The notes: a model not told the origin generated them from the sequence alone. Positions 41,147 to 64,000 are shown, counted from the first letter of the stretch. The stretch: DNA of 64,000 nucleotides from Dictyostelium discoideum (GCA_000004695.1 CM000154.2:2816001-2880000), one strand, 5' to 3'. Made by a program: numbers and translations.

Positions 41147-43666
41147 ATGTCAACAAAACCAACAATTAATAAAGATGAATTAGTTACATTATTCTCACAA
41201 ATTGGTTTAGATTCATCAAAAGCTAAAGAGACAACCAATAATGCAACTTTATCAAGCAATTTACAAGAGATCATTAAAGAAGCAGGTGCTGAAAGTGGTT
41301 GTGAAAAATCTGTTGGTTTATTATTATACACATTAGCAACTAAATATCCAGCCAATGCAATGAAACATCGTGCTACACTCGTTGACTATATTGCCAATAA
41401 GAAATCAGTAAACTCAATCAATTTGCAAGCATGTTTAGATTACCTCCGTCGTACTGCCAATGAGGAATTAAACGTAGCAGAATTTGAGCAATCATGTGGT
41501 GTTGGTGTTGTAATTACAAGAGAACAAGTCGCACAAGCCGTATCAGATTATATTAACAAAAATAAGAGTGACCTCTTGGAGAAACGTTATCAATTCAATA
41601 TTGGTGGTATTTTAATGGAGATTAAAAATAGTCTCAAATGGGCAAACGCAAAAGATATCAAAGAAGAAGTCGATGCTGCAATTCTTTCACTCTTAGGTCC
41701 AAAAACCGATGCTGATAAAGCACCACCAGCAAAACCAGTTAAACCAACCACTCCAACTGCTGTTGCCACCACCACTGCTGCCACCACCACCACTGGTGAT
41801 TTATCACCAATTATTCCAGCTGAATTAAAACCAGCCAAAGAAGAAATCAAATTCCCAGATCCAAGTGATAACATTCAAAACACACCAAAACTCTTGGCTG
41901 ATCATTTGAAAACCACAGGTGGTAAAATCGTTACTCGTTTCCCACCAGAACCAAATGGTTATCTCCACATTGGTCATGCTAAAGCAATGCACTTAAATTT
42001 TGGTTATGCTAAAAAGAATGGTGGTAAATGTTATCTTCGTTTCGATGATACAAATCCAGAAAAAGAAAATCAAGAATATATTGATTCAATTATTGATGTA
42101 TGTATTTATTTATAATACTATAAAAAAAAATATAAAATAATTTAATTAAAAAATATTTATTAATTAATTAATTATTATTAATTTTAGTCTGTTAAATGGT
42201 TAGGTCATGAACCTTGTGAAATTACATATTCATCATCACAATTTGATACACTTTATGAAATGGCAAATGAATTAATTAGAAGAGGTTACGCATATGTATG
42301 TCATCAAACAGCATCAGAAATTTCAGAAGGTAGAGAGAAAATGACAGATTCACCATACAGAAATAGAACAGTCGAAGAGAATCTTAAATTATTTGAAGAT
42401 ATGAGATTAGGTAAATTTGAAGAAGGTAAAGCCATCCTTAGAATGAAAGGTGATATGAAACATCCAAATCCATGTATGAGAGATTTAATTGCTTATCGTA
42501 TCAAATATCATCATCATCCAATGAGTGGTGATAAATGGTGTATCTATCCATCCTATGATTACACTCATTGTTTAGTCGATTCAATTGAAAATATCACTCA
42601 TTCACTCTGTACTTTGGAATTTGAAATTAGACGTTTAACTTATAATTGGTTAATTGATGTACTCGGACTCTATAGACCAGTAGTTTGGGAATATGCAAGA
42701 TTAAATTTAACTCATACAGTTTTATCAAAAAGAAAGATTATTACTTTAGTTCAAAATAGTAAGTTAATTAATTAATAATTAATTAATAATTATTAATATA
42801 AATATTAACATATATTTTATTTTTATTTTTATTTTAAAAAAAAAAAAGAAATTGTAAATGGTTGGGATGATCCAAGATTAAGTACATTAAATGCATTCCG
42901 TAGAAAAGGTTATACACCAGAAGCAATTAATTTATTATGTGATACAATTGGTGTAACACGTACTAATGGTACAACCATTTCATATGAATTATTAGAGTTA
43001 TGTTGTCGTCAAGATCTTGATGGTAAGGCAACTCGTGCAATGGCAGTTTTCGATCCAATCAAAGTTGTCATCACCAATTATCCAGAAGATAAGAGTGAAG
43101 AGATCAATGCACCAAATATTCCATCAAAACCAGAGAAAGGAACTCACAAAATCGATTTCTCACGTATTGTTTACATTGAGAGAAGTGATTTCCGTATGGA
43201 GGATAATAAAGATTTCTTTGGTTTAGCACCAGGTAAAGAGATTCTCCTCAAATATGCTTACAATATCAAATGTGAAAAAGTTATTCAAGATGCCGATGGT
43301 AAAGTCACTGAACTTCATGTAACCTACGATAAAGATAATAGCTCAAAGAAATTAAAGACCATTCATTGGGTTTCCTCTGTCGCTGGTACTGAACCAATGA
43401 AGGCCGAAGTTAGACTCTATGAACATCTCTTTAAGGATTCAGAAATCGGTGATGATTGGTTAAACAATATCAATCCAAATTCATTACGTATCATTCCAAA
43501 CGCCTTCATCGATAAAACTGTATTGGCTTCAAAAGAATATGATCGTTATCAATTTGAAAGAGTTGGCTACTTTGTTGTCGATAAAGATACTACCTCTGAT
43601 AAAATGGTTTTCAATAGAACAGTTTCATTAAAAGAAAATAAAGAAAAATCAAAATCAAGAAATTAA
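41147..43666 (+). CDS. glnS: Glutaminyl-tRNA synthetase (class I, with the eukaryote-specific N-terminal domain), 779 aa
   Basis: join(41147..42097, 42188..42758, 42849..43666). Donors GTATGT and GTAAGT. HIGH motif is [18 protein letters not shown]. Other matches: ...IIDSVKWLG..., ...[12 protein letters not shown]|[28 protein letters not shown] (cf. E. coli/human ...SKRKL..LV....V.GWDDPR.pTl.glRRRG). A C-terminal anticodon-binding beta-barrel region is present. Confidence 0.9.
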
Positions 43667-44681: not shown

Positions 44682-46469
44682 ATGGATTTATTAACAGCAT
44701 ACGATGACTCTGATGAAGAAGAGTTAACAAATACAAATACAAATACAAATACGAATACAACCACAACCACAACAACAACAACTACAACTACAACAGAAAC
44801 TACACCAACAATAAATAACAACAACAACAACAACAATAATAATAGTAATAAAACTATAACATCATTTAAACCAAGTAATTTAGCACCAATAGTAACATCA
44901 ATAAGAGTTGTAGAAAATAAAATTAATCCAAATGATAAGATATTATTATATAATCCAACAGTGGAAAGTTTAGAAGGTGATATATTTGGACCAAAGAAAC
45001 CATTTTCATCAAATGATAAAAAATTAGATCCTAAATTTAAAAATCATACAAATGGTTTGGTTGAAGATTATCATATAAATGATTATGCATTCAATCAACA
45101 GGTATTATCATTTAAAACTAATGGTTATTCAGAGAATCCAAATAATAGTACAGAGTTTATTGGTCATAGAAAAGATGAAAATGATCATACCAAAAAGAAT
45201 AATAATAATAATAAAAATAAAGATAAAAGAAAAAGAAATATAACAGATGATCCATCAAATGTTAATGGATATTTAGGACCATGGGGCACCACTAAAGCAG
45301 AATTAGATTTTAAACAAGGTAGAGAGAATGATATGGTTTCAATTGAAACTGATTTAACTGAACAACAAAGAGCATTTATGGATTCACGTGTTAAAAAACA
45401 AAAAGGTAAAGATGAAGAAGGTGGTGATATTGATTCAACTGCGGCAGCTTTATCAAATACATCAATATTTCATGGTAAATCAAAGAAGGATTATATGGGT
45501 AGATCTTGGGTTGACCCACCAAGTGATCTTAGATTGGTCACACCTGATACATTTGTACCAAAGAAATTGATTCATAATTATACTGGCCATACCAAAGGTG
45601 TTGCTGCTATTAGATATATACCAAAGTATGGTCATTTATTATTATCAGCTGGTATGGATAATACTGTAAAGATTTGGGATGCCTATGGCGACCGTCGTTG
45701 TATTCAAACCTATATGGGCCATTCACAGGCAGTTAGGGATATTTGTTTCTCAAATGATGGTCGTAGATTCCTAAGTTGTGGATATGATCGTCAGACTCGT
45801 CTTTGGGATACAGAGACTGGTAAGATACTAAGTTCATTCACAAATGGTAAAATACCCTATTGTATCAAATTCAATCCAGATGATGATAAACAAGAACAAT
45901 TCCTTTGTGGTGGTTCCGATAAGAAAATCATTCAATGGGATATCAAATCCAATCAAATCGTTCAAGAGTATGATCAACATTTAGGCGCTGTCAATACAAT
46001 TACCTTCTTGGATGACAATCGTAGATTCGTCACCTCTAGTGATGATAAATCATTACGTGTTTGGGATTGGGGTATTCCAGTGGTCATTAAATATATTAGT
46101 GATCCTTCAATGCATAGTATGCCTGCCGTTGCATTACATCCAAAGGGTAAATGGTTCGCAGCTCAATCTTTAGATAATCAAATCTTAATCTATAGTGCTC
46201 GTGATAGATTCCGTATGAATAAAAAGAAACGTTTCTTGGGTCATAATGTTTCTGGTTACGCTTGTCAATTAGGTTTCTCTCCTGATGGTAAATTCATTTA
46301 TTCGGGTGATTCAACTGGTAAAGCTTTCTTTTGGGATTGGAAAACTTCAAAAATCATTAAAACAATTAATGCTCATAATAATGTTTGTATTGGTATTGAA
46401 TGGGCTCCCTTAGAACCTTCAAAAGTTGCAACTTGTAGTTGGAATAATGAAATTAAACTGTGGGATTAA
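44682..46469 (+). CDS. Pre-mRNA splicing factor PRP17/CDC40 (WD40 repeats), 595 aa, single exon
   Basis: The C-terminal ~310 aa align nearly residue for residue with human CDC40. Ours: HTKGVAAIRYIPKYGHLLLSAGMDNTVKIWDAYGDRRCIQTYMGHSQAVRDICF...DKSLRVWDWGIPV...SMHSMPAVALHP...NQILIY...KLWD*. Human: [54 protein letters not shown]...DKSLRVWEWDIPV...SMHSMPAVTLSP.... The N-terminus has (ACAAAT)n/(ACA)n-encoded TNTNTN/Tn tracts. Confidence 0.9.
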   Translation: MDLLTAYDDSDEEELTNTNTNTNTNTTTTTTTTTTTTTETTPTINNNNNNNNNNSNKTITSFKPSNLAPIVTSIRVVENKINPNDKILLYNPTVESLEGDIFGPKKPFSSNDKKLDPKFKNHTNGLVEDYHINDYAFNQQVLSFKTNGYSENPNNSTEFIGHRKDENDHTKKNNNNNKNKDKRKRNITDDPSNVNGYLGPWGTTKAELDFKQGRENDMVSIETDLTEQQRAFMDSRVKKQKGKDEEGGDIDSTAAALSNTSIFHGKSKKDYMGRSWVDPPSDLRLVTPDTFVPKKLIHNYTGHTKGVAAIRYIPKYGHLLLSAGMDNTVKIWDAYGDRRCIQTYMGHSQAVRDICFSNDGRRFLSCGYDRQTRLWDTETGKILSSFTNGKIPYCIKFNPDDDKQEQFLCGGSDKKIIQWDIKSNQIVQEYDQHLGAVNTITFLDDNRRFVTSSDDKSLRVWDWGIPVVIKYISDPSMHSMPAVALHPKGKWFAAQSLDNQILIYSARDRFRMNKKKRFLGHNVSGYACQLGFSPDGKFIYSGDSTGKAFFWDWKTSKIIKTINAHNNVCIGIEWAPLEPSKVATCSWNNEIKLWD

Positions 46470-46638
46470 AAATAATTATAATAATAATATTAATAATAAT
46501 AAAAAAAAAAAAAAAACTAGATAGAAATTATTTTATTTATTTTGTTTTATTTATTTTTATTTGTTTTTTTATTTATTTTATTTCATTTATTTTATTTTAT
46601 TTATTTGTTTTATTATTATTTTTTAATTATTATGATTT

Positions 46639-49600
46639 TTATTTTTTTTGGTTATTGTTACCCATTTCATCATCGTCATTGTTATCCATTTCATCATCAT
46701 CATTGTTATCCATTTCTTCATCATAGAAGTCATCCTCCTCATCATTTCCACCCTTGGGTACAACAAAAAATTCATCTTCACTTTGTTCATCACTATCATC
46801 ATTATTATCATCATGATTATCTTTGTTGTTGTCTTGATCAGAGTTTTGAATTGATTGATTTGAATTATTATTTATTTGATTTGATTTATATATATGATCA
46901 AAATCAATTGTTGTGTGTATTAAAAATTTTTCCCAAGTATTATCTTTTGCTAAAACCTTATAGGTACCAATAACGTATAAACCTAACTTGGCTCTTGTTA
47001 GTGCTACATTGATACGTCTACGATCTGAGAGGAAACCAATACCAAATTTTTCGATTGATCTTACACATGACATAATGATGATATCTTTTTCTGAACCTTG
47101 AACACCATCAATTGTTGAAACTGAAATATTTAAATTATGATGTTCAGATCTATTTAGTTGTTCTTTGATTTGATTCATTTGTAATTTATAGGGAGTAATT
47201 ATACCAAATGATAGCTTTTTACATTCTGGATATTTTTCAATTAGTTCCTTTATTAAAGTAAATACCTTATCAATTTCATCTTGATTCATTATGGATTTTT
47301 TAATAACTTTTTGATTTGATTTTGGTAAATCAAAAAATTTCATCGGTCCAAATGAAGGATCGAAATGGAATTTACAATTGTTATAGGAATCTATTGAAAC
47401 GTTTTCACCATCTTTTAAAGTTCCGTTATAGAATTCTTCAGATATGAATTTTGATGTCACTGGATGCATACGATATTGTGTATTTAAAAATTGGACATCG
47501 ATCGATTTGGCTAATCTTTCAAATAATGATATTTTTAAACCACAGTCAGCACCTTGTTTGGAAAAAATAGTTGGTGGCAATTGAACTGGATCACCAACTA
47601 AAATTAACTTTTTAACAGAACCTAATGATAGTGGAATAATTGAGGTTGGTTCTGAAGATTGCGTAGATTCATCAATCAAAACAATATCTGGAGAAAAGTT
47701 TTCAAAAATAGCCTTTGAACCACTTCCAGCTAAAGTTGAGAAAACAATAGACGCTGATTTGATGAGGTTAATTCTTCTTGATGAATTTTTATTTTTAAGA
47801 GAAATTTTTTGACATTCTGGTGATATTTTTTCTTTTCTGCCAGTTCTAACCATGTTTGGTTTAAATATTTGACCATCACTATTTAATAGATTTTTTAAAC
47901 ATCTTTTTGCAACTTCATCTACTGATGCATGTGAAGGACCACATACCAAAATTTTGAACTTTTTGTCAATAGCTAATAAAACTGAAAGTAAATAATTGAT
48001 GGTTGTGGTTTTACCTGTACCTGGTGGACCTTGAATCAATGTTATACCACTCTCAACTAAAGATGATTTAATAGCATTAAGTTGTGATTCATTTAATTTT
48101 TCTTTACAAATTGTTTCCAAGGTTGGTGGGAATTTCATCATTTTTTGGTTCAAATTATTATTGCACCCTGGATTAAAAATAAGATTTTTAATAAATGGTG
48201 ATGCCTTAAATTCTTGAATGCTTCTAATGAATGTTACACTATTTGAAATTTTATTATAATGAATTGATGATTGAGTACTTGAATTTAATGACTTAGTAAA
48301 AAAGTGTGTTGGATTTGAATATAACAAATCGCAAACTATTGATTGTTGATGTAGGCTACCTTGCATTAAATTTGAAGTTTTTCTTACTATTCCAAATGTA
48401 AATTTTGTGCCATCTAAGCCTATTACTTTGAATAATAATATATCACCTACTGAAATTTCTTCCAGTTTATTTCTATTACCATGAATGATTAGTTCAACAG
48501 TTATAAATTTAGTTTGACGACTTATTTGGACAACTTCAATTGCTTCATTCATTTTAATTTTATCGAAACCTTCAAAAGTTCCATCTTTTGCACTATTAAT
48601 CCCATTAAGTGCATTAATTCCATTTTCAACTTGAGCTCTAAAGTCATCGAAAATTAATGGTTTATTTACTATTTGGTATTCTTTTTCTCCTGTATAATTA
48701 TCTGATAATTCACCTATACCATTTGGTTTTAGCAATGGTATTTTCGAAGGTTCACAACTTAAAATTAGATTTAAAGTTTCATCTGGACTTATTGATATTA
48801 CATCAACATAACTGTATATGTAATCAGCCTTAATCTTTGTATTATTATTATTATTATCATTATTATTTGATTTTTTGGTTCCAATGCTATGGACAGATAT
48901 TGTTTCATTTTTAAATAATTGATGAATTTCAATAAATAATAATTCTAAAACAGTTTCTAATCTTTCAGATTCATTCAATTGAAAATTTGGAATCTTTATT
49001 ATTGGAGATATCTTTGATTGAAAATCTTGAATCATTGTAACTTTAGATTTCTCTAAACACCTTGGATCGAATTTAATTTTGTTTTTTGCTAATTCACTTT
49101 TTAAATCATTGAAGGTAGTTCTATTACCTTTTGTTAAATTCCTTAACTCTATATTCTGGTAGTGATGATTAAACTCTATTAAAGCCATTAATGTTAATGT
49201 TTTTTGATATATCAAATTGACAGAACTTTTACGACTTAAATTTTCAGAGGGAATCAATTGATTTAGAGTTCTATTACAATTATTAATCTGTTGTTCAAAT
49301 GATTTTGTATCTTCTTCAATGATCCTTTTTAATTTGTTTAATTTGTTTTGGTTATTGTTTTCATTCTTTAATAATTTATTCAATTCATTGAGAATAAAAA
49401 GAACACTCTTAGGATCTTCAAATATTTTCATTAATAAACTATTTTTTAAACTTTTTTCAATATCAATTGTACTAGCTATTGGATTTGATAATGTTTGTTT
49501 TGGAGTTGTTATCATATCTAGTTTTGGTAAAGCAATTGTAGCTGGTATTGAAGTTGGGACAGCCGCTGGTGTTGTTGTTAATGTTGGTACAACTTGGTTT

Positions 49601-50901
49601 GTAGTAGTAGTTGTATTTAAACTTGGAGTTGGTAACAATGGGACCAATTTTGGAAGTGATATATCTTTGAATAATTCATTAATATCTTTAAACTTTTTTA
49701 ATCTTATTGAGTTTTCCATATGAATAAATTCAACAATAATTCTAAAGAAAGAATTTTGGATTGAAGAAGCAATATTTCTATCTGTTACAAAAGGATCCAA
49801 TACGATCATAGTACTTTTTAGCAAATCTTCATTAACAAGGGATGATCTTTTAAGTAATGGGCCATTTTTACATAGTGTACCACCGCCACTTGAATGACTG
49901 ATTGAAATAATATTCTCCTTATAGTTGAAAATTGAATAGTAGTTAAAGAATAGGTAGAAAAGTTGATCAATTTTTAATTTATTTTTACTTGAATCAAACT
50001 TATCAAAACTTTTAAATTCATAAAATTCAAAAGAATCAATTCGTTTTAAAATTGGATTTGTTGAATAGCTATTTAATAGTTGAGGTGATTTAGTTTGTAA
50101 ATTTGGTAGAATTGGTGTACTAATCGATTGAAGGAAGTGAATTACCATATTAACCAAACAGAAGGAACTAAATGTATGTTTTGATGCGTCATTCAAATTT
50201 TTACAGCTTGCCCACCATTTAACCAATAATGATAGAATGATATATCTATTATCTATGGAACAATATTCTTTCAATAATAATGAATTAAAATAAGCCTTTG
50301 ATGAATTGCAGCTCATATCGAAATGATACTTTGATGATTTCTCTACAAACCTAATTATTGGTACAGTTGCACTTAATCTCTTTTCAATGATTGTGTATAA
50401 CTTTGTTGACTCTAAATATTTGGAAACCACCTCTAAATGAGTTACTTGATTTTCATTTTGATTGATTTTGAAATTAACATCTAAATCACTACCCTCTAAT
50501 GATAATCCAGTTAAAAATGAACCATAGAGTTGAATAGATGAATCCTTAAATTTATTTGATAAAAACATTTCCAATCTATTGAAACTTTTTTCCTTTTTAC
50601 TAACTCTTTTACATTTAATTTTGTTGAATAGGATAATAAGATCATGGGTTATAGCTTTTTGATGTTTTGGAATTTGATAATTTAAATAAAAATCTGGTAT
50701 ATATTCCTTTAAATAATATGCCATATTTAATATATTTTTTTTAAAATCATTACTATGATATCCTTCTTCAGTAGGTTGTTCTTTTCTAAAGGCCTCAAAT
50801 AGTTTTATTGGGTAATCATCACCAATATTTTTTCTACTCTCAGTTTTATTTTCATTAAATTCTTTGTAAATGTTGTTGAAAATTGTAATTTCATCATTAT
50901 T

Positions 50902-50948
<47 letters not shown>

Positions 50949-51645
50949 TATCATTATCATTATTATTATTATAATTATTATTATTATTTAAAGTATTTGA
51001 GTTTGAGTTTGAGTTTGAGTTTGAGGTTGGTTTTTGAGTTTGAGTTTGAGGTTGAGATTGCGTTTGTGTGATTTTTATAACATCTGGAACCTGTTTTAAA
51101 ATGCCAGTAGCCAATGAAGTTTCTTTTAATAATCTAACCTCTTCAAATAGATTTTTAATGGTCATGATTATATTTCCACCATCGAAAGGAAGAGAAAAAT
51201 TAGGGATTTCAAAATAAATAGATGCACCATCAATGATTTCAATTGGTTTTGAAAATTCACTAAGATTTCTTGTAAATATTTTCTTAATTCCAAATCTTGA
51301 CTGAACACTTTCCAATATTGCTGAACATTTTGAAAAATTTAATCCATAAGCTTTGCAATGCTCTTTTAAATATTTTCTTTGACAAAAAAAATTAAATTCA
51401 ATGACCATTCTTAGAACAAGATATTGATTGTAAAAAATACTTGATTTAATTGATTCATTGGATTGATTTTTTAACATTGCCTTCAAACTATGTAATAATT
51501 TACCTAATAAACCATCTCTTCTACTTTTAGATTTTTTAACAAAATCTTTCATTAAATTTAATTCTATTTCATTGCCTTTAAATTGATTTTTAAAACTATC
51601 TATTACTTGAATTTGATCATTAATATCGATTTCTTTGAAAACCAA
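46639..51645 (-). CDS. Fusion protein, copy 1: Cid1/Gld2-family nucleotidyltransferase (Pol-beta NTase + PAP-associated domain) joined to a UPF1/Mov10-like SF1 RNA helicase, 1668 aa, single exon
   Basis: NTase motif LYGSFLTGLSLEGSDLDVNF (hG[GS]...DxD) at ~50465-50530, with a third acidic residue in KYHFDMSCN. PAP-associated domain is ...FSSFCLVNMVIHFLQ. A T/P-rich linker, a coiled coil and a beta-barrel-like segment (ELIIHGNRNKLEEISVGDILLFKVIGLDG) follow. SF1 motifs: I GPPGTGKTTTI (~48010), II VLIDESTQSSEP, III LILVGDPVQLPPT, IV FLNTQYRMHP, V STIDGVQGSEKDIIIMSCVRS, VI GFLSDRRRINVALTRAK. Acidic tail ...DDDEMDNNDDDEMGNNNQKK. A (GAT)n stretch encodes poly-D. Confidence 0.85.
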
Positions 51646-52145
51646 TTCAAAAATATTATTCCTTTGCGCTTTTTTGATTATTAAAAAAAAAAAAGAAAAA
51701 AAAAAAAAAAAAAAATTAATATAAATAAATATATAAATAAATAAATAAATAAATAAGTAAATAATAAAAAAATAAATAAATGATAAATAATAATTAAATA
51801 AATTATCTAAAAATTAATATTAAAAAAATATTTACACATCTTGGTTTATTTATTTATTTATTCAATAAATAAAAAAAAAAGTTGAAAATTAAATGTAAAA
51901 AATGATTTAAATATTTTTTTATAGGGAGAAGTTTAAAAAAAAAAAACGATTTAAATTTTTTTTTTATAGGTTTTGTTTTTTTTTTTTTGAATCAAGGGAA
52001 AATTTTAAAAAAAAAAAAAAAAAAAAAATTTTAAAAATCGTAAAATTCATCAATTATTAAAAAATCTGAGACATGAAAATTATAATGGACATAATTAAAA
52101 AATAATTTATTATTATTTTATTTATTTGGTTTATTTTGTTTTATT

Positions 52146-52202
52146 TTAGAACCTTCAAAAGTTCCAACTTGCAGTAGCGATAATGAAATTAAACTGTGGG
52201 AT
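52146..52202 (+). pseudogene. Relic of the PRP17/CDC40 3' terminus (last ~18 codons + stop) carried along by the tandem duplication
   Basis: 52146..52202 gaaccttcaaaagttccaacttgcagtagcgataatgaaattaaactgtgggattaa would encode EPSKVPTCSSDNEIKLWD*. The true PRP17 end at 46413..46469 encodes EPSKVATCSWNNEIKLWD*. The downstream 3'-flank taaaaataattataata...agatagaaattattttatttatttt is also conserved. Upstream sequence is unrelated to PRP17. Confidence 0.65.
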
Positions 52203-52324
52203 TAAAAATAATTATAATAAAAAAAAAAAAAAACAAGATAGAAATTATTTTATTTATTTTATTTTATTTATTTTATTTTTATTTTTATTTATTTTTTTTA
52301 TTTTATTTATTTTATTTATTATTA

Positions 52325-55300
52325 TTATTTTTTATTATCATGATTTTTATTTTCTTTGTCGTTGTTGCCCATTTCATCATCGTCATTGTTATCCATTTCA
52401 TCATCATTGTTATCCATTTCTTCATCATCATAAAAGTCATCCTCCTCATCATTTCCACCCTTGGGTACAACAAAAAATTCATCTTCACTTTGTTCATCAC
52501 TATCATCATTATTGTCATCATGATTATTATTATTATTATTATTATTTGTTATTTCTCCACCATTATTTTCATTCTTTATCTCTAATTGATTTTCATTTTC
52601 TTTTTTATTTTCATTTTCATTTTCATTTTTATTTTCATTTTTATTTTCGTTTTCGTTTTCATTTTCATTTTCATTTTTATTTTTATTTTCATTTTCATTT
52701 TTATTTTCATTTTCATTTTCATTTTCACTTTTATTATCAATAGTATTATTATTATGATTATCTTTGTTGTCTTGGTTAGAGTTTTGAATTGATTGAATTG
52801 AATTATTATTTATTTGATTTGATTTATATATCTGATCAAAATCAATTGTTGAGTATTTTAAAAAATTTCCCCAAGTATTATCTTTTTCTAAGACCCAAGA
52901 GGTACCAATAACGTATAAACCTAACTTGGCTCTTGTTAGTGCTACATTGATACGTCTACGATCTGAGAGGAAACCAATTCCATATTTTTCGGTACATCTT
53001 ACACATGACATGATAATGATATCTTTTTCTGAACCTTGAACACCATCAATTGTTGAAACTGAAATATTTAAATAACGATGTTCAGATCTGTTTAATTGTT
53101 CTTTGATTTGAATCATTTGTAATTTATAGGGAGTAATTATACCAAATGATAGCTTTTTACATTCTGGATATTTTTCAATTAGTTCCTTTATTAAAGTAAA
53201 TACCTTATCAATTTCATCTTGATTCATTATGGATTTTTTAATAACTATTTGATCTGATTTTGGTAAATTAAAAAATTTCATTGGCCCGAATGAAGGATCG
53301 AAATGGAATTTACAATTGTTAAAGGAGTCTATCGAAACATTTTCACCATCTTTTAAAGTTCCGTTATAGAATTCTTCAGATATGAATTTTGATATCACTG
53401 GATGCATACGATATTGTGTATTTAAAAATTGGACATCGATCGATTTGGCTAATCTTTCAAATAATGATATTTTTAAACCACAGTCAGCACCATCTTTTGA
53501 AAAAATAGTTGGTGCTAATTGAACTGGGTCACCAACTAAAATTAACTTTTTAATAGAACCTAATGATAGTGGAATAATTGAGGTTGGTTCTGAAGATTGT
53601 GTAGATTCATCAATCAAAACAATATCTGGAGAAAAGTTTTCAAAAATAGCCTTTGAACCACTTCCAGCTAAAGTTGAGAAAACAATAGAGGTTGACTTGA
53701 TGAGGTTAATTCTTCTTGATGAATTTTTATTTTTAAGAGAAATTTTTTGACATTCTGGTGATATTTTTTCTTTTCTGCCAGTTCTAACCATGTTCGGTTT
53801 AAAATTTTGACCATCACTATTTAATAGATTTTTTAAACATCTTTTTGCAACTTCATCTACTGATGCATGTGAAGGACCACATACCAAAATTTTGAACTTT
53901 TTGTCAATAGCTAATAAAACTGAAAGTAAATAATTGATGGTTGTGGTTTTACCTGTACCTGGTGGACCTTGAATCAATGTTATACCACTCTCAACTAAAG
54001 ATGATTTAATAGCATTAAGTTGTGATTCATTTAATTTTTCTTTACAAATTGTTTCCAAGGTTGGTGGGAATTTCATCATTTTTTGGTTCGAATTATTATT
54101 ATTATTATTATTATGTCCTGGATTATAAATAAGATTTTTAATAAATGGTGATGCCTTAAATTCTTGAATGGTTCTAATGAATGTTACACTATTTGAAATT
54201 TTAATATAATCAATTGATGATCTAGTGCTTGGATTTAATGATAAAGTAAAAACATATGTTGGATTTGAATCAAACAAATCACAAACTATTGATTGTTGAT
54301 GTAGGCTACCTTGCATTAAATTTGAAGTTTTTCTTACTATTCCAAATATAAACTTTGTGCCATCTAAGCCTATTACTTTGAATAGTAATATATCACCTAC
54401 TGAAATTTCTTCCAATTTATTTCTATTACCATGAATGATAAGCTCAACAGTTTCAAATTCAGTTTGACGACTTCTTTGGACAACCTCAATTGATTCATTC
54501 ATTTTAATTTTATCGAAACCTTCTAAAGTACCATCTTTTTTACTTAGAATGATCCCATTGAGTGCATTAATTCCATTTTCAACTTGAGCTCTAAAGTCAT
54601 CGAAAATTAATGGTCTCATTAAGTTTTGATATTGTTTATCTCCTGTAAAATTATCTGATAATTCATCAATACCAGTTGCTCTTAGCAATGGTATTTTCGA
54701 AGGTTGACAACTTAAAATTAGATTTAATGTTTCTTCTGGACTTATTGACATTACATCAACATAATCGTATATGTAATTAGCCTTATTATTATTATTATTA
54801 TTATTATTATTTTTTGATTTTTGTATCACGAATACAGAACCTGTTTCCATTTGAAATAATTGATGAATTTCATTAAATAATAATTCTATAACAGTTTCTA
54901 ATCTTTCAGATTCATTCAATTGAAAAGTTGGAATCTTTATTATTGAAGAGATCTTTGATCGAAAATCTTTAATCATTGTAATTTTATCCTCTTTTATACT
55001 CTTTGGATCGAATTTAATTTTGCTTTTTGCTAATTCACTATTTAAATCATTGAAATTAGTTCTATTATCTTTTGTTAAATTCCTTAACTCTATATACTGG
55101 TAGTGATGATTAAACTCTATTAAAGCCATTAATGTTAATGTTTTTTGAAATATCAAATTGACAGAACTTTTACAACTTGTATTTTCAGAGGGAATCAATT
55201 GTTTTAGAGTTTTATTACAATTACTAATCTGTTGACTAAATGAGTCTTTTTCTTCTTCAATGATTTTTTTTAATTTGTTTAATTGATTTCGGATATTGTT

Positions 55301-56846
55301 TTCATTTTTTAATAAATTTTCCAATTCACTGAGAATAAAAACAACATTCTGTGGATTTTGAAATATTTTCATTAATAAACTATTTTCTAAACCTTTTTCA
55401 ACATTTATTGTAGCTGGTTTTGAAGTTTTAGTTGTTAGTGGAGTTGGTTTTGAGGTTGAATTTGTAGTTGTTGTTGTAGTTGGTGGAGCTGGTTTTGAAG
55501 TTGAATTTGTAGTTGAAGTTGGAGTTGGTGCAACTGTTTTTGTAATATTGGTATTTGTAGTTGTATTTGTAATCGGTAACAATGAAACTAGTGTTGGAAG
55601 TGATATATCTTTGAATAATTCATTAATATCTTTAAACTTTTTTAATCTTATTGAGTTTTCCATATGAATAAATTCAATAATAATTCTAAAGAAAGAATTT
55701 TGGATTGAAGAAGCAATATTTCTATCTGTTATAAATGGATCCAATACGATCATAGTACTTTTTAGCAAAGCTTCATTAACAAGGGATGATCTTTTAAGTA
55801 GTGGGCCATTTTTACATAATGAACCGCCGCCACTTGAATGACTGATTGAAATAATATTCTCTTTGTAGTTGAAAATTGAATAGTAGTTAAAGAATAGGTA
55901 GAAAAGTTGATCAATTTTTAATTTATTTTTACTTGAATCAAACTTATCAAAACTTTTAAATTCATAAAATTCAAAAGAATCAATTCGTTTTAAAATTGGA
56001 TTTGTTGAATAGCTATTTAATAGTTGAGGTGATTTAGTGTGTAAATTTGGTAAAATTGGTGTACTAATCGATTGAAGGAAGTGAATTACCATATTAACCA
56101 AACAGTAAGAACTAAATGTATGTTTTGATGCATCATTCAAATTTTTACAGCTTGTTCACCATTTAACCAATAATGATAGAATGATACATCTATTATCTAT
56201 GGAACAATATTCTTTCAATAATAATGAATTAAAATAAGCCTTTGATGAATTGAAACTCATATCGAAATGATACTTTGATGATTTCTCTACAAACCTAATT
56301 ATTGGTACAGTTGCACTTAATCTCTTTTCAATGATTGTGTATAACTTTGTTGACTCTAAATATTTGGAAACCACCTCTAAATGAGTTACTTGATTTTCAT
56401 TTTGATTGATTTTGAAATTAACATCTAAATCACTACCCTCTAATGATAATCCAGTTAAAAATGAACCATAGAGTTGAATAGATGAATCCTTAAATTTATT
56501 TGATAAAAACATTTCCAATCTATTAAAACTATTTTCCTTTTTACTAACTCTTTTGCATTTAATTTTGTTGTATATGATTTCAAGATCATGGTTTACAATT
56601 TTTTGATGTTTTGGAATTTGATTATTTGAATTAGGATCTGGTATAAAATTCCTTGAATAATATGCCATATTTAATATATTATGTTTAAAATCATTACTAT
56701 AATATCCTTCTTCAGTTGGCTTTTCTTTTTTAAAAACCTCTAATAGTTTTATTGGGTAATCATCACCAATATTTTTTCTACTTTCGTTTCTATTTTCATT
56801 AAATTCTTTGTAAATGTTGTTGAAAATTGTAATTTCATCATTATTT

Positions 56847-56899
<53 letters not shown>

Positions 56900-57526
56900 G
56901 TTGTTGTTATTATTGGTTAAAGTGTTTGGTGATTTTGATTGCGTTTGTGTGATTTTTGTAACCTTTGGTACCATTTCTAAAACACCAGTACCCAATGAGG
57001 TTTTTTTTAATATTGTAACCTCTTCACGTAGATTTTTAATGGACATGATAATATTTCCACCTTCGAAAGGAAGAGAAAAATTAGGGATTTCTAAATGAAT
57101 AGCACCATCAATGATTTCAATTGGTTTTGAAAATTCACTTGGATCTCTTGTCAATAGTCTCTTTGTTCCACCTAATCTTGAATGAATATTATCCAATTTT
57201 GGTGAATATTTTGAAATATTTAAACCATTGGTTTCACAATACTCTTTGAAATAAATTCTTTGATAATAAAAATTAAATTCGATGATCATTCTAAAAACAA
57301 GATATTGATTGTAAAGAATACTTGATTTAATTGATTTAAAGGATTGTTTTTTAAACATGGTCTTCAAATGACTTGATATTCCACCTCCTAAACTATTTCT
57401 TCTACTTTTAGATTTTTTTATAAAATCTTTCATTAAATTTAATTTTATTTCATTGCCTTTAAATTGATTTTTAAAACTATCTATTACTTGAATTTGATCA
57501 TTAATATCGATTTCTTTGAAAACCAA
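52325..57526 (-). pseudogene. NTase-helicase fusion gene, copy 2: colinear paralog of 46639..51645, interrupted by one in-frame TGA between the NTase/PAP module and the helicase module (pseudogene, or split into two ORFs)
   Basis: ORF 56156..57526 (456 aa: N-terminus, NTase motif LYGSFLTGLSLEGSDLDVNF, start of PAP domain) ends ...LLVKW* at TGA 56156..56158, where copy 1 has TGG (WWAS). The frame continues open as ORF 52325..56140 (...TSCKNLNDASKHTFSSYCLVNMVIHFLQ..., all SF1 motifs I-VI intact; the next true ATG is the M of VNMVIH). Copy-specific changes: a poly-N tract ((AAT)n) where copy 1 has poly-D, and a C-terminal (ENENKN)n expansion from (TTTTCA)n. Nucleotide identity to copy 1 is ~93% in the helicase core (one 200-nt stretch compared by eye) and lower elsewhere. 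Confidence 0.75.
52566..52735. repeat. (TTTTCA/TTTTCG/TTTTTA)n hexamer microsatellite inside the copy-2 helicase gene (encodes (ENENKN)n on the minus strand)
   Basis: ttttcattttcattttcatttttattttcatttttattttcgttttcgttttcattttcattttcatttttattt.... In frame within ORF 52325..56140; absent from copy 1. Confidence 0.8.
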
Positions 57527-58222
57527 TTCAAAAATATTATTTCTTTGCGCTTTTTCGATTATTAAAAAAAAAAAAAAAATTAGTTGACATATTTAAAAAA
57601 ATAAATCAAAAAATAAATAAATAATAAATAATAAATAATTAATATTTTAAAAATATTTACCCATCTTAATTTATTTATTTATTGAAGCTGTGTTCAATAT
57701 AGAATAAATAAATATAAAAAGTTTAAAATTAAATAATTTTTAAATTTATTATTACAGGCTTTGTTTTTTTTTTTTGAATTAAGGGAGAAGCTTTTTTTTT
57801 TTGAAAAGATTAAAAAAAAAAAATAAAAAATAAAAAAAAATAAAAATCTTTTTCAATCGTAAAATTCATCAATTAATATTTTCTATCTGAGATAAGAAAA
57901 TTTTAATAAACAACATAATTAAAAAACAATTATTTTTTAGTATTTAATTTTTTTTGGTTCAATTATTTTATTTTTATTTTATTTTATTTTTTTTATTTTA
58001 TTTGTTTTGTTGTCAATTTTTTTTTTTTTTTTTTTTTTTTTGGTTTTATTTTTCATTTTTTTAATTTTATTTATTTTTAATAAAAATTTATTATACAATA
58101 ATAGAGCACCCCAGAAACACAAAATGATTTAAAATATAAAAAAATTTAATTTTTTACATATCTCACACCTTCATTTCTGAATATAGTTTAGATTATTATT
58201 ATTATTATTGTTATTATCATTA

Positions 58223-58318: not shown

Positions 58319-58475
58319 CACTTAGATTTTACAGTTAGTTAAACTTAAAAACTTGAAAATTTTCAAGTTCTCTGTTACTTCATATTAATAAAAATTGCAT
58401 ATTATTTTCCACATGTGTCACTTAATAATAATTTCTGTTTATAAAAATTACCTATTATTTTAAATATATTAGTAA
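58319..58475 (+). promoter_or_regulatory. Conserved upstream module of actin paralog 1 (about -275 to -120 from the ATG)
   Basis: cacttagattttacagttagttaaacttaaaaacttgaaaattttcaagttctctgttacttcatattaat...ccacatgtgtcac...tttctgtttataaaaattacctattattttaaatatat. The same blocks appear upstream of paralogs 2 and 3. Confidence 0.5.
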
Positions 58476-58593
58476 AAAAAAAAAAAAAACTAGTTTAATA
58501 AACCTAATGTAATTTTAAAATAATTAAAAAAAAAAAAAAAAAATAACCAATAATAAGTTGTAAATATTCAAATAATAATCAAAATAATAAAAA

Positions 58594-59725
58594 ATGGAAT
58601 GTGAAGATGTTCGACCTATAGTTATTGATAATGGTTCTGGTATGTATAAAGCTGGTTTTGCTAGTGATGATGCTCCACGTACAATTTTTCCATCAATTGT
58701 TGGTCATCCAAAGTGCAATGGTTTTATGGTTGACATAGATCAAAAAGATTCATATGTTGGTGATGAAGCTCAATCAAAAAGGGGTATTCTAAATGTTAAA
58801 TATCCAATTGAACGTGGTATTATTACCAATTGGGATGATATGGAAAAAATCTGGTATCATACTTTTTATAATGAACTTGGTGTTTCCTATGGAACATCCA
58901 GTTCTCTTAACTGAACCACCACTAAATCCAAATAAAAATAGAGAGAAAATGACTCAAATCATGTTTGAAACTTTCAATACTCCTGAATTGTATGTTGCAA
59001 TTCAAGCTGTATTATCATTATATGCTTCTGATCGTACAACTGGTATCGTTTTGGATTCAGGTGATGGTGTTTCCCATACCGTACCGGTTTATGGTAGTTA
59101 TGCATTACCTCATGCAATTAGACGTTTACATTTAGCTGGTGGTGATCTTACTGATTACATGTGTAGAATGTTAAACTTTGAACGTTGTTACTCATTCACA
59201 ACAACTACTGAAAGAGAAGTAGTTAGAGGTATTAAAGAGAAATTAGCATATGTTGCATTGGATTTTGGAGCTGAAATGCAAACTGCAGCCTCATCATCTG
59301 CATTAGAGAAATCATATGAATTACCAGATGGCCAAGTTATTACAATCGGTAATGAACGTTTCCGTTGTCCAGAAGCACTTTTCCAACCGTCATTATTGGC
59401 TATGGACTATGATGGTATTCATGAAACAATCTATAATTCAATCATGAAATGTGATGTTGGTATTCATAAAGATTTATTTGGTAGTGTTGTATTATCAGGT
59501 GGTTCAACTATGTTCCCTGGTATTGCAGATCGTATGAATAAAGAATTAACTGCACTTGCACCATCAACAATGAAAATTAAAATTATTGCACCACCAGAAC
59601 GTAAATACTCTGTATGGATTGGTGGTTCAATTTTAGCTTCAGTTTCAACTTTCCAACAAATTTGTATTTCAAAAGAAGAATATGACGAATCTGGTCCATC
59701 AATTGTTCACAGAAAATGTTTCTAA
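58594..59725 (+). pseudogene. Divergent actin paralog with a 2-bp deletion frameshift (actin pseudogene, or a sequencing error)
   Basis: ORF 58594..58914 ([40 protein letters not shown]...[19 protein letters not shown]) switches frame to ORF 58793..59725 (...[39 protein letters not shown]...IVHRKCF*). Paralog 2 has cgtgttgctccagaggaacatcc (RVAPEEHP) where this copy has ggtgtttcctatggaacatcc, two nucleotides shorter (~58878-58900). It is otherwise full length. Confidence 0.7.
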
Positions 59726-59807
59726 TTTTTTAAAAGAAAAAAAATATATTTTTAAATCGAATCTAAAATTAGTTTTGGTCTGTGAAGTTGGCAAAAGAAA
59801 ATTAGCG

Positions 59808-59845
<38 letters not shown>

Positions 59846-60087
59846 AATAACATATTGATGGAATATATCTTCTTTCATTAATTTTATAATCAAATTAAAT
59901 TTATTTCTCTTTTTTTAAATTATTACTTTATTTTTAAATTTCTACTTTTTTTTTTTTTTTTTTTATTTTAAAATCTTGGTGGCAATTAAAAAAAATAAAA
60001 TAAAACAAAAATAATAAATAATAATAAAATTTAAAAACTAAATAAAAATTAATTTGCATTATCCAATATTATTTATTTATTTGTTTA

Positions 60088-60138
<51 letters not shown>

Positions 60139-60150
60139 GATACTATTTTT

Positions 60151-60270
60151 GATTTGATTTTGTTAATTAAATTCAATTTGATTTGGTTTGATTTGATTTG
60201 ATTTGATTTGGTTGGGTTCGATTTGATTTGATTTAATTTGATTTGATTCGATTTGATTTGATTTGATTTA
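60151..60270. repeat. (GATTT)n microsatellite (~22 units, a few variant units) between actin paralogs 1 and 2
   Basis: gatttgattttg...atttggtttgatttgatttgatttgatttggttgggttcgatttgatttgatttaatttgatttgattcgatttgatttgatttgattta. The track ORF 60069..60344(-) (SNQIKSNQIK...) is simply its translation. Confidence 0.8.
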
Positions 60271-60420
60271 CTTTTTTTTATGCAAAAATTGCGTTTTAAA
60301 TATTTTCTTAATTTTTTAATTTTTTTAAAAAAAAAAAATTTCAAGTTTTTTTTTTTTAAAAATATTATTTTTTTTTTGTATTAAGATAATAAAAAGTAAT
60401 TCAACTCAATTTGACTATGA

Positions 60421-60560
60421 TTCTATGACGCTGACCCCTCAGATTTTTCAGTCAGTTAAAAAAACTTGAAATTTTCAGTTCTCTGTTAATTCATATTAAT
60501 TTCTGTTTATAAAAATTACATATTATTTTAAATATATACTCCACATGTTTATAATTATTA
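60421..60560 (+). promoter_or_regulatory. Conserved upstream module of actin paralog 2, with the GC-rich motif GCTGACCCCTCAGATTTTTCAGT
   Basis: gacgctgacccctcagatttttcagtcagttaaaaaaacttgaaattttcagttctctgttaattcatattaatttctgtttataaaaattacatattattttaaatatat...ccacatgttt. Block order and spacing are shared with 58319..58475 and 62281..62400. Confidence 0.5.
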
Positions 60561-60727
60561 TTTTTTTTTTTTTTATTGGTAAAAAAAAAAAAAATAAAAA
60601 AATAAAAAAATTAACAGTTTATTTTAATAAACCTTAAATAATTTAAAATCATTAATAAAAAAATAAAAAAACAATACAGAGTTATATATCACAAATAATA
60701 ATCAAATAATAATCAAAATAATATAAA

Positions 60728-61861
60728 ATGGAATGTAAAGAAGACCTAACAATAGTTATTGATAATGGTTCTGGTATGTGTAAAGCTGGTTTTGCTGGTT
60801 ATGATGCTCCACATGCAGTTTTTCCATCAATTGTTGGTCGTCCTAGACATACTGGTGTTATGGTTGGTATGGGTCAAAAGGATTCATATATTGGTGATGA
60901 AGCTCAATCAAAAAGGGATATTCTAAATCTTAAATTTCCAGTTGAGCGTGGTATTATTACCAATTGGAATGATATGGAAGAAATCTGGCATCATACTTTT
61001 TATAATGAACTTCGTGTTGCTCCAGAGGAACATCCAGTTCTCTTAACTGAACCGCCATTAAATTCAAAAGCAAATAGAGAGAAAATGCCTCAAATCATGT
61101 TTGAAACTTTCAATACTCCTGCAATGTATGTTGCAATTCAAGCTGTATTATCATTATATGCATCTGGTCGTGCAACTGGTGTCATTCTGGATTCAGGTGA
61201 TGGTGTTTCTTATACTGTACCAGTTTATGAAGGTAATACATTTCCACTTTCAATTACACGTTTACATTTAGCTGGTGGTGATCTTACTGATTACATGAGT
61301 AGATTATTATACACTGATTGTGGTTACTACTTTTCAACAAAAGCTGAAAAAGAAATAGTTAAAGATATTAAAGAGAAATTAGCATATGTTGCATTGGATT
61401 TTGAAGCTGAAATGCAAACTGCAGCCTCATCGCCTTCATTAGAGAAATCATATAAATTACCAGATGGTCGAATGATCACAATTGGTAATGAACGTTTCCG
61501 TTGTCCAGAAGCACTTTTCCAACCATCATTATTGGCTATGGACTATGATGGTATTCATGAAACAACCTATAATTCAATCATGAAATGTGATGTTGATTTT
61601 CATAAAGATTTATATGGTAATGTTTTATTATCAGGTGGTTCAACTATGTTCCCAGGTATTGCAGATCGTATGAATAAAGAATTAACTGCACTTGCACCAT
61701 CAACAATGAAAATTAAAATTATTGCACCACCAGAACGTAAATACTCTGCATGGATTGGTGGTTCAATTTTAGCCTCACTTTCAAGTTTCCAACCAAGGTG
61801 GATTTCAAAAGAAGAATATGACGAATCTGGTCCATCAATTGTTCACAGAAAATGTTGGTAA
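60728..61861 (+). CDS. Divergent actin-family protein, 377 aa, intact, single exon
   Basis: Colinear with conventional actin over the full length: [63 protein letters not shown]...[16 protein letters not shown]...[48 protein letters not shown]. Many substitutions relative to canonical Dictyostelium actin (MDGEDVQALV...HRKCF). Confidence 0.85.
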
Positions 61862-62280
61862 TTTTTTAAAAGAAAAAAAAAAAAATACTATTTTTTTAAT
61901 TAAATAAGAAATATATAAATGGTTGTTTAAAATTATTACCATGAATATTATAAGAATTACTATTTTTAAATATATAAACTGAGATGTAAATTAATAAAAT
62001 AATTTATTTTGCCAGAATGTAATAATTATATCTCACTAATAAAAATATCCATATAAGGAAATATTAAAAAAAAAAAAAAAAAACAGAAAATTTACATTCA
62101 TTTTTTTTATATTTTAAATCATTGATGATTTACACGTGCATTCTGAATATTTTCCTTGTTTTTTATTTTTTTTTTTTTTTTTTAATTATATAAAATTTTG
62201 TTTTTAAGTTTTTTTTTTTTTTTTAAGCAAAATATTTATTTTTCAAATTACAACATTATGACAACCAAAAGTGATTTCTA

Positions 62281-62400
62281 TGGGGCTGACCCCTTAGATT
62301 TTTCAGTTATTTAAACTTAAAAAAACTTGAAATTTTTAATTTCTCTGTTACTTAATATTAATTTCATATTATTTTAAATATATATGTTCATTATTATTAT
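62281..62400 (+). promoter_or_regulatory. Conserved upstream module of actin paralog 3, with GGGGCTGACCCCTTAGATTTTTCAGT
   Basis: tggggctgaccccttagatttttcagttatttaaacttaaaaaaacttgaaatttttaatttctctgttacttaatattaatttcatattattttaaatatat. GCTGACCCCT is a very GC-rich 10-mer for this genome and occurs at the same relative position as in paralog 2. Confidence 0.5.
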
Positions 62401-62510
62401 TATTAAAAAAAAAAAAAATTAATTTTTTTAAAATAAACCTAAAATAATTTAAAATCATAAAAAACCAACAATAAGGAACATATATCAAATAATAATCAAA
62501 ATAATATAAA

Positions 62511-63668: not shown

Positions 63669-64000
63669 AAAAAAAAAAAAAAAAAAATTAGTTAAATTAA
63701 TAAAATAAAATAAAAATTATAAAAACAAAAAAAAAAACAAAAAAAAAAAAAAAGTATGGTAAAATAAAAATAAAATAAAAATTATAAAAACAAAAAAAAA
63801 AAAAATTAAAAAAAAAAAAAAATAGAATTAGTTTCTTGTCGATAAAAGAAATAATCACTCATATAAATTTTTTTCACTAGTGACATAATTTTGGCTCTAG
63901 TTACGTAATATATTATAGTAAAGCATTCGCTGAAAAAAAAAAGGTTAAAAATTAAAAAATAAAACAAAAAAAAAAAAAAAACAAAAAACTAAAAGTCTAA

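Follow-up and report, generated by a model that had tools for sequence, protein, structure and literature searches.

A tandem pair of genes in Dictyostelium discoideum appears to encode a fusion of a Sen1-like helicase and a Cid1/TUT-type nucleotidyltransferase (NTase). The pair lies on the minus strand of a stretch of 64,000 nucleotides (GCA_000004695.1 CM000154.2:2816001-2880000), called the window below, with positions counted from its first letter. In our reading, to which we assign a probability of roughly 0.6, the pair is a recent tandem duplicate of a dictyostelid fusion gene whose domains have been rearranged, with copy A intact and copy B disabled, and the encoded protein would act by an unwind-and-tail mechanism.

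Self-BLAST resolved two head-to-tail minus-strand units, 46410-51774 and 52146-57655, that are 91.4% identical over a 4.2-kb core. Copy A is a single uninterrupted open reading frame (ORF) of 1668 codons at 46639-51645, and a chance origin is excluded for a frame of 1668 open codons in 25% GC DNA. Upstream of the conserved N-terminal residues, the long exon contains no in-frame ATG. A 4-nt mini-exon made of the ATG and one further base is present in copy A, copy B, and the relative Dictyostelium cf. discoideum, followed in each by GTAAAT, an AT-rich stretch of ~110 to 170 nt, and AG. The phase of the mini-exon fits joining to the long exon, and the start of copy A then reads M-S-Q-R-N-N-I-F. 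From these splice signals, the reading-frame phase, and conservation, we infer intron 1 of copy A. The resulting models are 51839..51836 plus 51668..46639 for copy A (minus strand, 1677 aa) and 57664..57661 plus 57549..52325 for copy B (minus strand, 1742 codons). A previous description of this DNA, the sequence-only reading, had reported a tandem pair at 46639-57526 in which each copy encodes, as one polypeptide of ~1700 aa, an NTase fused to a superfamily 1B (SF1B) helicase. The tandem pair (~91% identity) and the covalent fusion within one frame of copy A were borne out, and the interval locates the gene pair but misses the 4-nt first exons (51836-51839 and 57661-57664). The single polypeptide holds for copy A and fails for copy B, which has an in-frame TGA. 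The features of the two copies are as follows (all minus strand).

51836..51839, minus: copy A exon 1 (ATGT, the ATG plus 1 nt); GTAAAT follows, the phase fits exon 2, and the structure is the same in copy B and the relative (locus L001)
51669..51835, minus: predicted copy A intron 1, AT-rich, GTAAAT...AG, from splice signals, phase, and conservation
46639..51668, minus: copy A exon 2, an uninterrupted ORF together with its stop codon
51127..51666, minus: copy A N-terminal module, aa 3-182, without known domain, repeated at aa 740-920
49603..50733, minus: copy A NTase module, aa 314-690, from Pfam, PDB sequence matches, and motif alignment; homology by hhalign starts at aa 314
50470-50529 and 50311-50325, minus: GS/DLD and third Asp (HFDMS), respectively, of the copy A NTase palm, aa 344-471
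49780-49965, minus: copy A PAP_assoc, aa 570-631, with DPFVTDRN at 49774-49797
48913..49455, minus: copy A mid module, aa 740-920, a probable second N-terminal module by Smith-Waterman and hhalign
48103..48840, minus: copy A helicase accessory region, aa 945-1190, predicted stalk helix and beta-barrel, from family-only sequence matches and an AlphaFold 2 (AF2) model
46963..48099, minus: copy A SF1B helicase core, aa 1192-1570, from AAA_11/AAA_12, PDB matches, and invariant columns
48007-48030, 47659-47679, and 47569-47595, minus: copy A helicase motifs GPPGTGKT, LIDESTQ, and GDPVQLPPT
47461-47478, 47083-47109, and 46987-47022, minus: copy A helicase motifs QYRMHP, DGVQGSEKD, and RRRINVALTRAK
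46642..46842, minus: copy A acidic C-terminal tail, aa 1611-1677, by eye like the acidic stretch after the helicase in relatives
57661..57664, minus: copy B exon 1 (ATGG)
52325..57549, minus: copy B exon 2, 1742 codons interrupted by one stop, modules as in A
56414-56473 and 53945-53968, minus: copy B NTase motifs and helicase Walker A
51840..52324, minus: spacer between the copies, comprising the 3' flank of B and the promoter region of A, from self-BLAST and sequence

Copy B cannot make the full fusion protein because the in-frame TGA at 56156-56158 (codon 466) splits it into ORFs 56156-57526 and 52325-56140. The site reads TGG GCA in copy A and the outgroup and TGA ACA in copy B, so the change is derived in B, and the Trp that was lost is the family-invariant Trp of the KYW motif inside the NTase. 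Copy B has no frameshift, and its PAP_assoc region lies downstream of the TGA. A sequencing error was judged an unlikely source of the stop, as the two-base difference lies within well-aligned sequence. Two microsatellites in copy B are missing in copy A: (ATTTTC)x25 at 52589-52739, which encodes an (E/N/K)-rich tail insertion of ~70 aa, and a 45-nt unit repeated 2.8 times at 55434-55563 in a Thr/Pro-rich linker.

Pfam scans of the copy A ORF detected AAA_11 (E 2.8e-48) and AAA_12 (E 8.2e-61). Motifs I, II, III, IV, V, and VI are all present across two RecA domains, with GPPGTGKT, DESTQ, GDPVQLPPT, QYRMHP, DGVQGSEKD, and RRINVALTRAK in columns invariant over 24 sequences. Compared with PDB sequences, the helicase matched yeast Sen1 best (3e-72), then Chaetomium SETX, then UPF1/Nam7 (~1e-60), and the nearest nondictyostelid helicases in a large protein collection were plant MAGATAMA3 (the top match) and senataxin-like proteins, at ~37% identity. 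An AF2 model of aa 940-1625 (predicted local distance difference test [pLDDT], 82.7; predicted template modeling score [pTM], 0.84) places a long helix at 57-81 and a beta block at 105-205 (model numbering) ahead of the RecA domains. When this model was searched with Foldseek, the best match was Sen1 (8ram_O), with a template modeling score (TM) of 0.78/0.77 over 720 columns covering the whole helicase domain, followed by SETX (0.75) and UPF1 (~0.62). The model supports the presence of stalk and beta-barrel (1B) accessory domains of the Sen1-like type.

Neither copy had a Pfam match to SEN1_N (PF12726), and the CH zinc-binding domain of UPF1 (PF09416) was absent from both in the same scans. 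A separate D. discoideum Sen1 ortholog with PF12726 exists (P0279). Copies A and B thus appear to be neither Sen1 orthologs, lacking SEN1_N, nor UPF1 orthologs, lacking the CH domain. Translocation and unwinding of RNA in the 5'-to-3' direction is predicted from family membership.

For the NTase, Pfam matches in the copy A ORF were to MTPAP-like_central (PF22600, E 8.5e-20), TUTase (PF19088, E 2.7e-7), and NTP_transf_2 (PF01909, E 1.2e-5). The PAP_assoc domain (PF03828) was missed in a scan of the full-length protein and was found at aa 570-631 (34 bits, E 3.5e-8; cutoff, 22.6) when the segment aa 562-668 was scanned alone. TUT4 was the best match among PDB sequences (2.2e-30), followed by TUT7, GLD-2, URT1, and Cid1, with Trf4 at 6.6e-10; a short PAP-region query against the same sequences returned no match. 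LYGS...SDLDV and HFDMS in both A and B align to LFGS...SDLDI and GDIS of the TUT4 catalytic module. These results support an NTase of Cid1/GLD-2/TUT type in which the GS...DxD...D triad is intact and a PAP-associated domain is present. The UTP-selecting His of DPFxxxHN in Cid1 and TUT7, which is present in relatives P0128, P0131, and P0133 and in the TUT4 catalytic module, is Arg in A and B (DPF(V/I)TDRN). Because of this Arg, a uridylyltransferase call is not warranted. An AF2 model of aa 3-700 was confident in the NTase part alone, with pLDDT below 50 in the N-terminal 330 aa; these 330 residues and aa 690-945 had no Pfam match, and both parts were modeled with low confidence.

Much of the domain assignment in the sequence-only reading survives this analysis. 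The Cid1/Gld2/TUTase-type NTase with GS...DLD and a third acidic residue is confirmed by Pfam and the TUT4 alignment, all of the helicase motifs it quoted are present as a complete SF1B set, and its guess of a 1B-like beta-barrel is consistent with an AF2 model that superposes on the whole Sen1 helicase domain. The Pfam domains that it expected were recovered in the full-length protein for NTP_transf_2, AAA_11, and AAA_12; the PAP-associated domain it named was recovered as well, but only in the isolated segment. Within the UPF1/Mov10/Sen1 type to which it assigned the helicase, UPF1/MOV10-like was dropped in favor of Sen1/senataxin/MAGATAMA3-like on the basis of the PDB sequence and Foldseek comparisons; MOV10 was not among the best matches listed.

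The fusion is not unique to the window; among the sequences searched, the family appears only in dictyostelids. A HMMER search run exhaustively over 1.84 billion cluster representatives, with aa 267-1190 as the query, produced 3983 NTase relatives, and 6 of the best 150 NTase matches also carry a helicase that is closer to the window helicase (310 to 362 bits) than any Sen1/MAGATAMA3 protein. A seventh member, the second Cavenderia paralog, was found by cluster listing. The seven members come from four genera, all dictyostelid: Dictyostelium purpureum (XP_003286312), Cavenderia fasciculata (XP_004358207, XP_004351884, and XP_004358201), Acytostelium subglobosum (XP_012750428 and XP_012750430), and Heterostelium album (XP_020437552). 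Cavenderia has three copies and Acytostelium two, and D. purpureum has a single copy and, in addition, a lone NTase fragment. Single ORFs span both modules, at L002 13882-17202 for D. purpureum and at L003 3731-7771 and 10510-13905 for A. subglobosum, which argues that the fusions in relatives are not gene-model artifacts. A profile of the whole fusion found both domain sets in dictyostelids only (1650 to 1860 bits), the next match being a Sen1 homolog at 535 bits, a result that may leave room for more divergent fusions outside the dictyostelids.

Domain order separates the window genes from their relatives. In 6/6 relatives scanned with Pfam and BLAST, the accessory region and helicase come first, followed by an acidic linker and a C-terminal NTase with PAP_assoc. 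Residues 945-1586 of copy A map to the front of the relatives and residues 330-675 to their C-terminal part, so the order is reversed in A and B, which read N-module, NTase, second N-module, and accessory region with helicase. Because of this reversal, A and B were filed as a rearranged variant of the family. The same fusion, which the sequence-only reading had suggested looking for in other Amoebozoa, is thus represented by seven helicase-first dictyostelid proteins. That reading did not recognize the architecture as a described family; no description of a helicase-NTase fusion was found in the literature searched, but the architecture is not a one-off, since it belongs to a dictyostelid family with the reverse order.

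Family membership was assessed for each module. In neighbor-joining (NJ) trees, the NTases of A, B, and D. purpureum P0125 formed a clade in 99/100 bootstraps, and a wider clade of 11 members, all dictyostelid, that takes in every fusion-family NTase was recovered in 57/60. Only two of the 11 lack the helicase: Cavenderia DFA_09264 and a EukProt entry with a Synstelium-style identifier. NTase identity between the window and relatives was 30 to 41%. The accessory region plus helicase scored 335 to 383 bits to family members compared to at most 315 to other proteins, and in sequence searches the accessory region matched family members alone.

Several loci of relatives carry further features. The two family genes of A. 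subglobosum form a head-to-tail pair on one strand (L003 3426-13905), separated by ~2.2 kb in which a small gene of 129 aa is located. An NTase-only fragment on D. purpureum GL871216.1 (L004 9566-10690) matches copy A aa 341-658 at 37 to 40% identity by tblastn; only a 90-aa partial protein (62% identical) is annotated there, with no helicase within 10 kb of it. At its N terminus, the D. purpureum family member is extended by 1130 aa (L002 10001-13733); this extension contains no Pfam domain and may belong to one gene or two. By eye, this extension contains two similar stretches near residues 5 and 185, and two long inter-ORF gaps are introns in the model. The possibilities that the extension of P0125 contains a degenerate NTase or matches the neighbors of other species were tested and gave no match.

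The reversed order may have arisen by fusion of tandem paralogs. Over their first ~50 residues, A and B can be aligned with the N terminus of D. purpureum P0125, starting from residue 2 in each (z ~5; NNIF..VF conserved), which argues that the 5' end of the gene is old. The N-terminal module (aa 2-182) is collinear with aa 740-920, just before the accessory region and helicase, with a Smith-Waterman z of ~6 and 0/1000 shuffles reaching the score; hhalign recovered the same repeat (E 0.0025 over 136 columns). The mid module is weakly similar to the pre-helicase N-terminal region of A. subglobosum P0133 (z 4.6). Given this internal repeat of the N-module and the head-to-tail family pair in A. 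subglobosum, the simplest reading, likely but not established, is that two adjacent paralogs with the order N-module...helicase...NTase merged via internal and terminal deletions. Such a merger would lose the first helicase and the last NTase, producing N-module-NTase-N-module-helicase.

Substitution patterns were compared between the copies and, with the Dictyostelium cf. discoideum copy as the outgroup, along each lineage. Pairwise dN/dS (omega) between A and B was 0.22 in the PAP-associated domain, 0.36 in the helicase, 0.69 in the NTase palm (few sites), 0.77 in the mid region, and 0.98 in the N-terminal region. Nonsynonymous/synonymous counts were 67/34 on the B lineage and 125/63 on that of the relative, with a neutral site ratio of ~4.1; because its counts fall below this ratio, copy B has not been neutral for long. 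About 5.8% of random substitutions create a stop, and ~6 stops are expected per lineage; 0 were seen on the A lineage (P ~0.003) and 1 on the B lineage (P ~0.02). Between the modules, a stretch of 500 codons stays open in A as well as in B despite ~4 stops expected from 73 lineage-specific substitutions, which argues for translation as one polypeptide. Taken at the sequence level, these data indicate that copy A is intact with both catalytic modules under purifying selection and that copy B, now disabled, remained under constraint until recently.

A set of observations weighs against this interpretation. It is from the open frame that we predict one mRNA or protein spanning both modules. Whole-gene dN/dS between A and B is high (0.62), and the copy A lineage has a nonsynonymous/synonymous count of 74/25. 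The single syntenic copy in Dictyostelium cf. discoideum (L001 6700-11900) carries 9 frame-breaking deletions (1, 1, 1, 11, 64, 10, 8, 1, and 8 nt) and an in-frame stop, with intact neighboring genes, and is annotated as two proteins of 922 and 593 aa; this ortholog is read as a pseudogene. With copy B disabled and the sister ortholog carrying multiple frameshifts, the gene is dispensable in some lineages at least. An NJ tree of the helicase core, which is too conserved, fails to resolve the family (20/60 bootstraps), and for this reason the accessory region and bit scores were relied on. The window has no neighbors in common with the loci of D. purpureum, A. subglobosum, C. fasciculata, or H. 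album, the history of paralog fusion draws on a modest repeat signal (hhalign probability, 12%), and the NTase of A and B combines Arg at the UTP-selective His position, as in the inactive LIM module of TUT4, with an insertion in the PAP-associated region, so that its activity could be altered. Assembly errors behind the frameshifts of the relative were considered and judged unlikely, because the deletions are 8 to 11 nt or outside homopolymers and the neighbors are intact. The fusion family turns over quickly.

SF1B helicases of the Sen1/UPF1 group translocate 5' to 3' on RNA, and terminal nucleotidyltransferases (TENTs) add untemplated tails to RNA 3' ends. By analogy with these families, the fusion most likely couples its helicase to the 3' tailing of RNA destined for decay or silencing. 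The helicase would load on a target RNA and, moving 5' to 3', clear it of proteins or structure; the NTase tethered to it would thereby reach the freed 3' end and add a short untemplated tail, marking the RNA for exonucleolytic decay or feeding it into silencing. Coupled remodeling and tailing is proposed because translocation toward the 3' end would bring along an NTase tethered to the helicase. In yeast, Sen1-dependent termination is followed by tailing by Trf4/TRAMP (NNS-TRAMP). TUT4/7 cooperate with the SF1B helicase MOV10 on LINE-1 mRNA (PMC6191937), and Cid12 pairs with Hrr1 in the RNA-directed RNA polymerase complex (RDRC) of Schizosaccharomyces pombe (PMC2965749). Repeated duplication, pseudogenization, and rearrangement may reflect conflict with selfish or foreign RNA, and the combination of tandem duplication, nonsense mutation, and pseudogenization hints at an arms race. 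A more specific version, offered tentatively, is that the fusion is a fast-evolving, single-polypeptide unwind-and-tail effector of dictyostelids against selfish or foreign RNA (retrotransposon or viral) whose order was rebuilt in the D. discoideum lineage by fusion of tandem paralogs.

Dictyostelium has RNA-dependent RNA polymerases (RdRPs) and active RNA interference (RNAi), which would fit an alternative role as an RNAi amplification factor. The fusion would then be the equivalent of Hrr1 plus Cid12, working with Dictyostelium RdRPs to make secondary small interfering RNAs rather than marking RNA for decay in surveillance. Fast turnover is typical of silencing genes, and a helicase is paired with a Cid1-family NTase in RDRC (PMC2965749), but no RdRP gene was found in the window or related loci, nor any RdRP link in the sequence or neighborhood examined. 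The helicase is closest to Sen1 (in a comparison without Hrr1), and the nearest NTases are TUT4/7, GLD-2, and URT1, leaving this role unlikely.

Another possibility is that the locus is a decaying, functionless remnant, with both copies and the family in this lineage heading for loss, in which the copy A ORF reflects recent release from constraint. The nonsense codon in copy B, the nine frame-breaking deletions plus stop in the Dictyostelium cf. discoideum ortholog, omega values of ~0.8 to 1 in the N-terminal and mid regions, and the nonsynonymous/synonymous ratio of 2.96 on the copy A lineage, the highest of the three lineages, would all fit such decay. However, the 1677 codons of copy A contain no stop or frameshift compared to ~6 expected stops (P ~0.003), omega is 0.22 to 0.36 in the catalytic modules, and all catalytic motifs of both enzymes are intact, making a remnant quite unlikely.

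A third alternative takes the protein as essentially a helicase whose NTase-fold domain in A and B recognizes substrate without catalysis, binding RNA or acting as a scaffold as the Lin28-interacting module of TUT4 does. The Arg that replaces the nucleotide-selecting His is found in the N-terminal module of TUT4 as well (DPFSVKRN versus DPFVTDRN), the PAP-associated region contains a lineage-specific insertion, and Pfam misses the domain in the full-length protein. Three results argue otherwise: the metal-binding triad (GS, DLD, and FDMS) is intact in A and B compared to D-V-N in the TUT4 LIM module, PAP_assoc scores 34 bits when its segment is scanned alone, and omega of 0.22 indicates constraint. 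Loss of catalysis is therefore regarded as very unlikely. A nuclear, transcription-coupled factor acting in the manner of Sen1 plus TRAMP, in which the helicase dislodges RNA polymerase or R-loops and the NTase tails the transcript for exosome decay, would suit a helicase whose best match by sequence and structure, accessory domains included, is Sen1/senataxin, as well as the textbook order of Sen1 termination before Trf4 tailing in yeast, but it is hard to credit for a protein without SEN1_N in a genome with a separate true Sen1 ortholog (P0279) and with an NTase that resembles cytoplasmic TUT/GLD-2 enzymes more than it does Trf4 (PDB match E 6.6e-10).

Across the window, GC content in 2-kb windows is 14 to 32%, mostly 20 to 28%. 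Positions 36.9 to 63.3 kb align piecewise, with gene order kept, to a contig of Dictyostelium cf. discoideum GCA_054859205.1 (75 to 96% nucleotide identity, mostly 84 to 93%). The pair has as neighbors a plus-strand WD40 gene (44682-46469) and three clustered plus-strand actin genes (58793-63668), with a glutaminyl-tRNA synthetase (GlnRS) gene and a VPS9-domain gene beyond these immediate neighbors. The duplicated unit begins within the 3' end of the convergent WD40 gene, which therefore has a ~60-nt duplicate of that end in the spacer between the copies, downstream of copy B (52146-52205 versus 46410-46469). The actin cluster (window 58473-63707) contains ORFs 58793-59725, 60728-61861, and 62511-63668 (plus strand), mutually 84 to 88% identical at the DNA level. 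The first of these is just a 310-aa ORF matching actin profile positions 90-410, with its 5' part in another frame (ORF 58594-58914), and may be a pseudogene or contain an intron. The GlnRS gene (window 41147-43666) covers at least two ORFs (41147-42115 and 43040-43666) and is presumably split by introns. Rfam and tRNA scans of the 64-kb window returned no matches, and an exact look-up of the gene products in the protein collection found no match.

Tailing enzymes and RNA helicases are known as separate cooperating subunits, as in TRAMP, RDRC, and TUT4/7 plus MOV10. A covalent fusion kept in four dictyostelid genera would give independent genetic support for their functional coupling and would offer a compact, single-gene system in a tractable organism for asking how a 3' end is passed from unwinding to a tailing enzyme. 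With the helicase first elsewhere and the NTase first here, the two orders provide a natural test of architecture, and an effector of opposite order would, if true, be a natural experiment on module order in a helicase-polymerase machine. For annotation, the database names of relatives ("regulator of nonsense transcripts-like" or "hypothetical") look automatic, the former seems misleading, and copy B needs to be marked as disrupted.

Among known systems, the dictyostelid relatives are the closest for both modules. They share with the window the NTase motifs YGSF..G..L..SD.DV, FDMCFN, KYWA, and PP.LPNLQ, the accessory region, the acidic stretch after the helicase, and tandem or multiple copies. 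They differ in placing the helicase before the NTase, whereas in the window the NTase precedes the helicase with a duplicated N-module between them; several keep the UTP-selective His that is Arg in A and B, and the loci are not syntenic. TUT4/TUT7 (ZCCHC11/ZCCHC6) with MOV10 provide the nearest NTase (E 2e-30) and pair an SF1B 5'-to-3' helicase with a 3' tailing enzyme, but as separate proteins, and TUT4/7 have zinc knuckles and a second, inactive NTase module. Unlike that pair, the window combines a Sen1-like helicase, with MOV10 not among the matches listed, and an NTase without the selective His.

S. pombe RDRC (Rdp1-Hrr1-Cid12) likewise deploys a helicase and a Cid1-family NTase as a unit on silencing-bound RNA. 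It is a three-subunit, RdRP-centered complex, whereas the window activities are covalently joined, with no RdRP link in the loci examined. In TRAMP, Trf4 and the SF2 helicase Mtr4 are separate subunits. UPF1 shares the SF1B fold and motifs (E ~1e-60) but has a CH/zinc-binding domain that the window proteins lack, and its TM of ~0.62 is below that of Sen1. For the helicase, Sen1/senataxin and MAGATAMA3 are the nearest counterparts, with Sen1 the best match in sequence (3e-72) and fold (TM 0.78), stalk and barrel included; in contrast to Sen1, the window proteins have no SEN1_N, and the genome encodes its own Sen1 ortholog.

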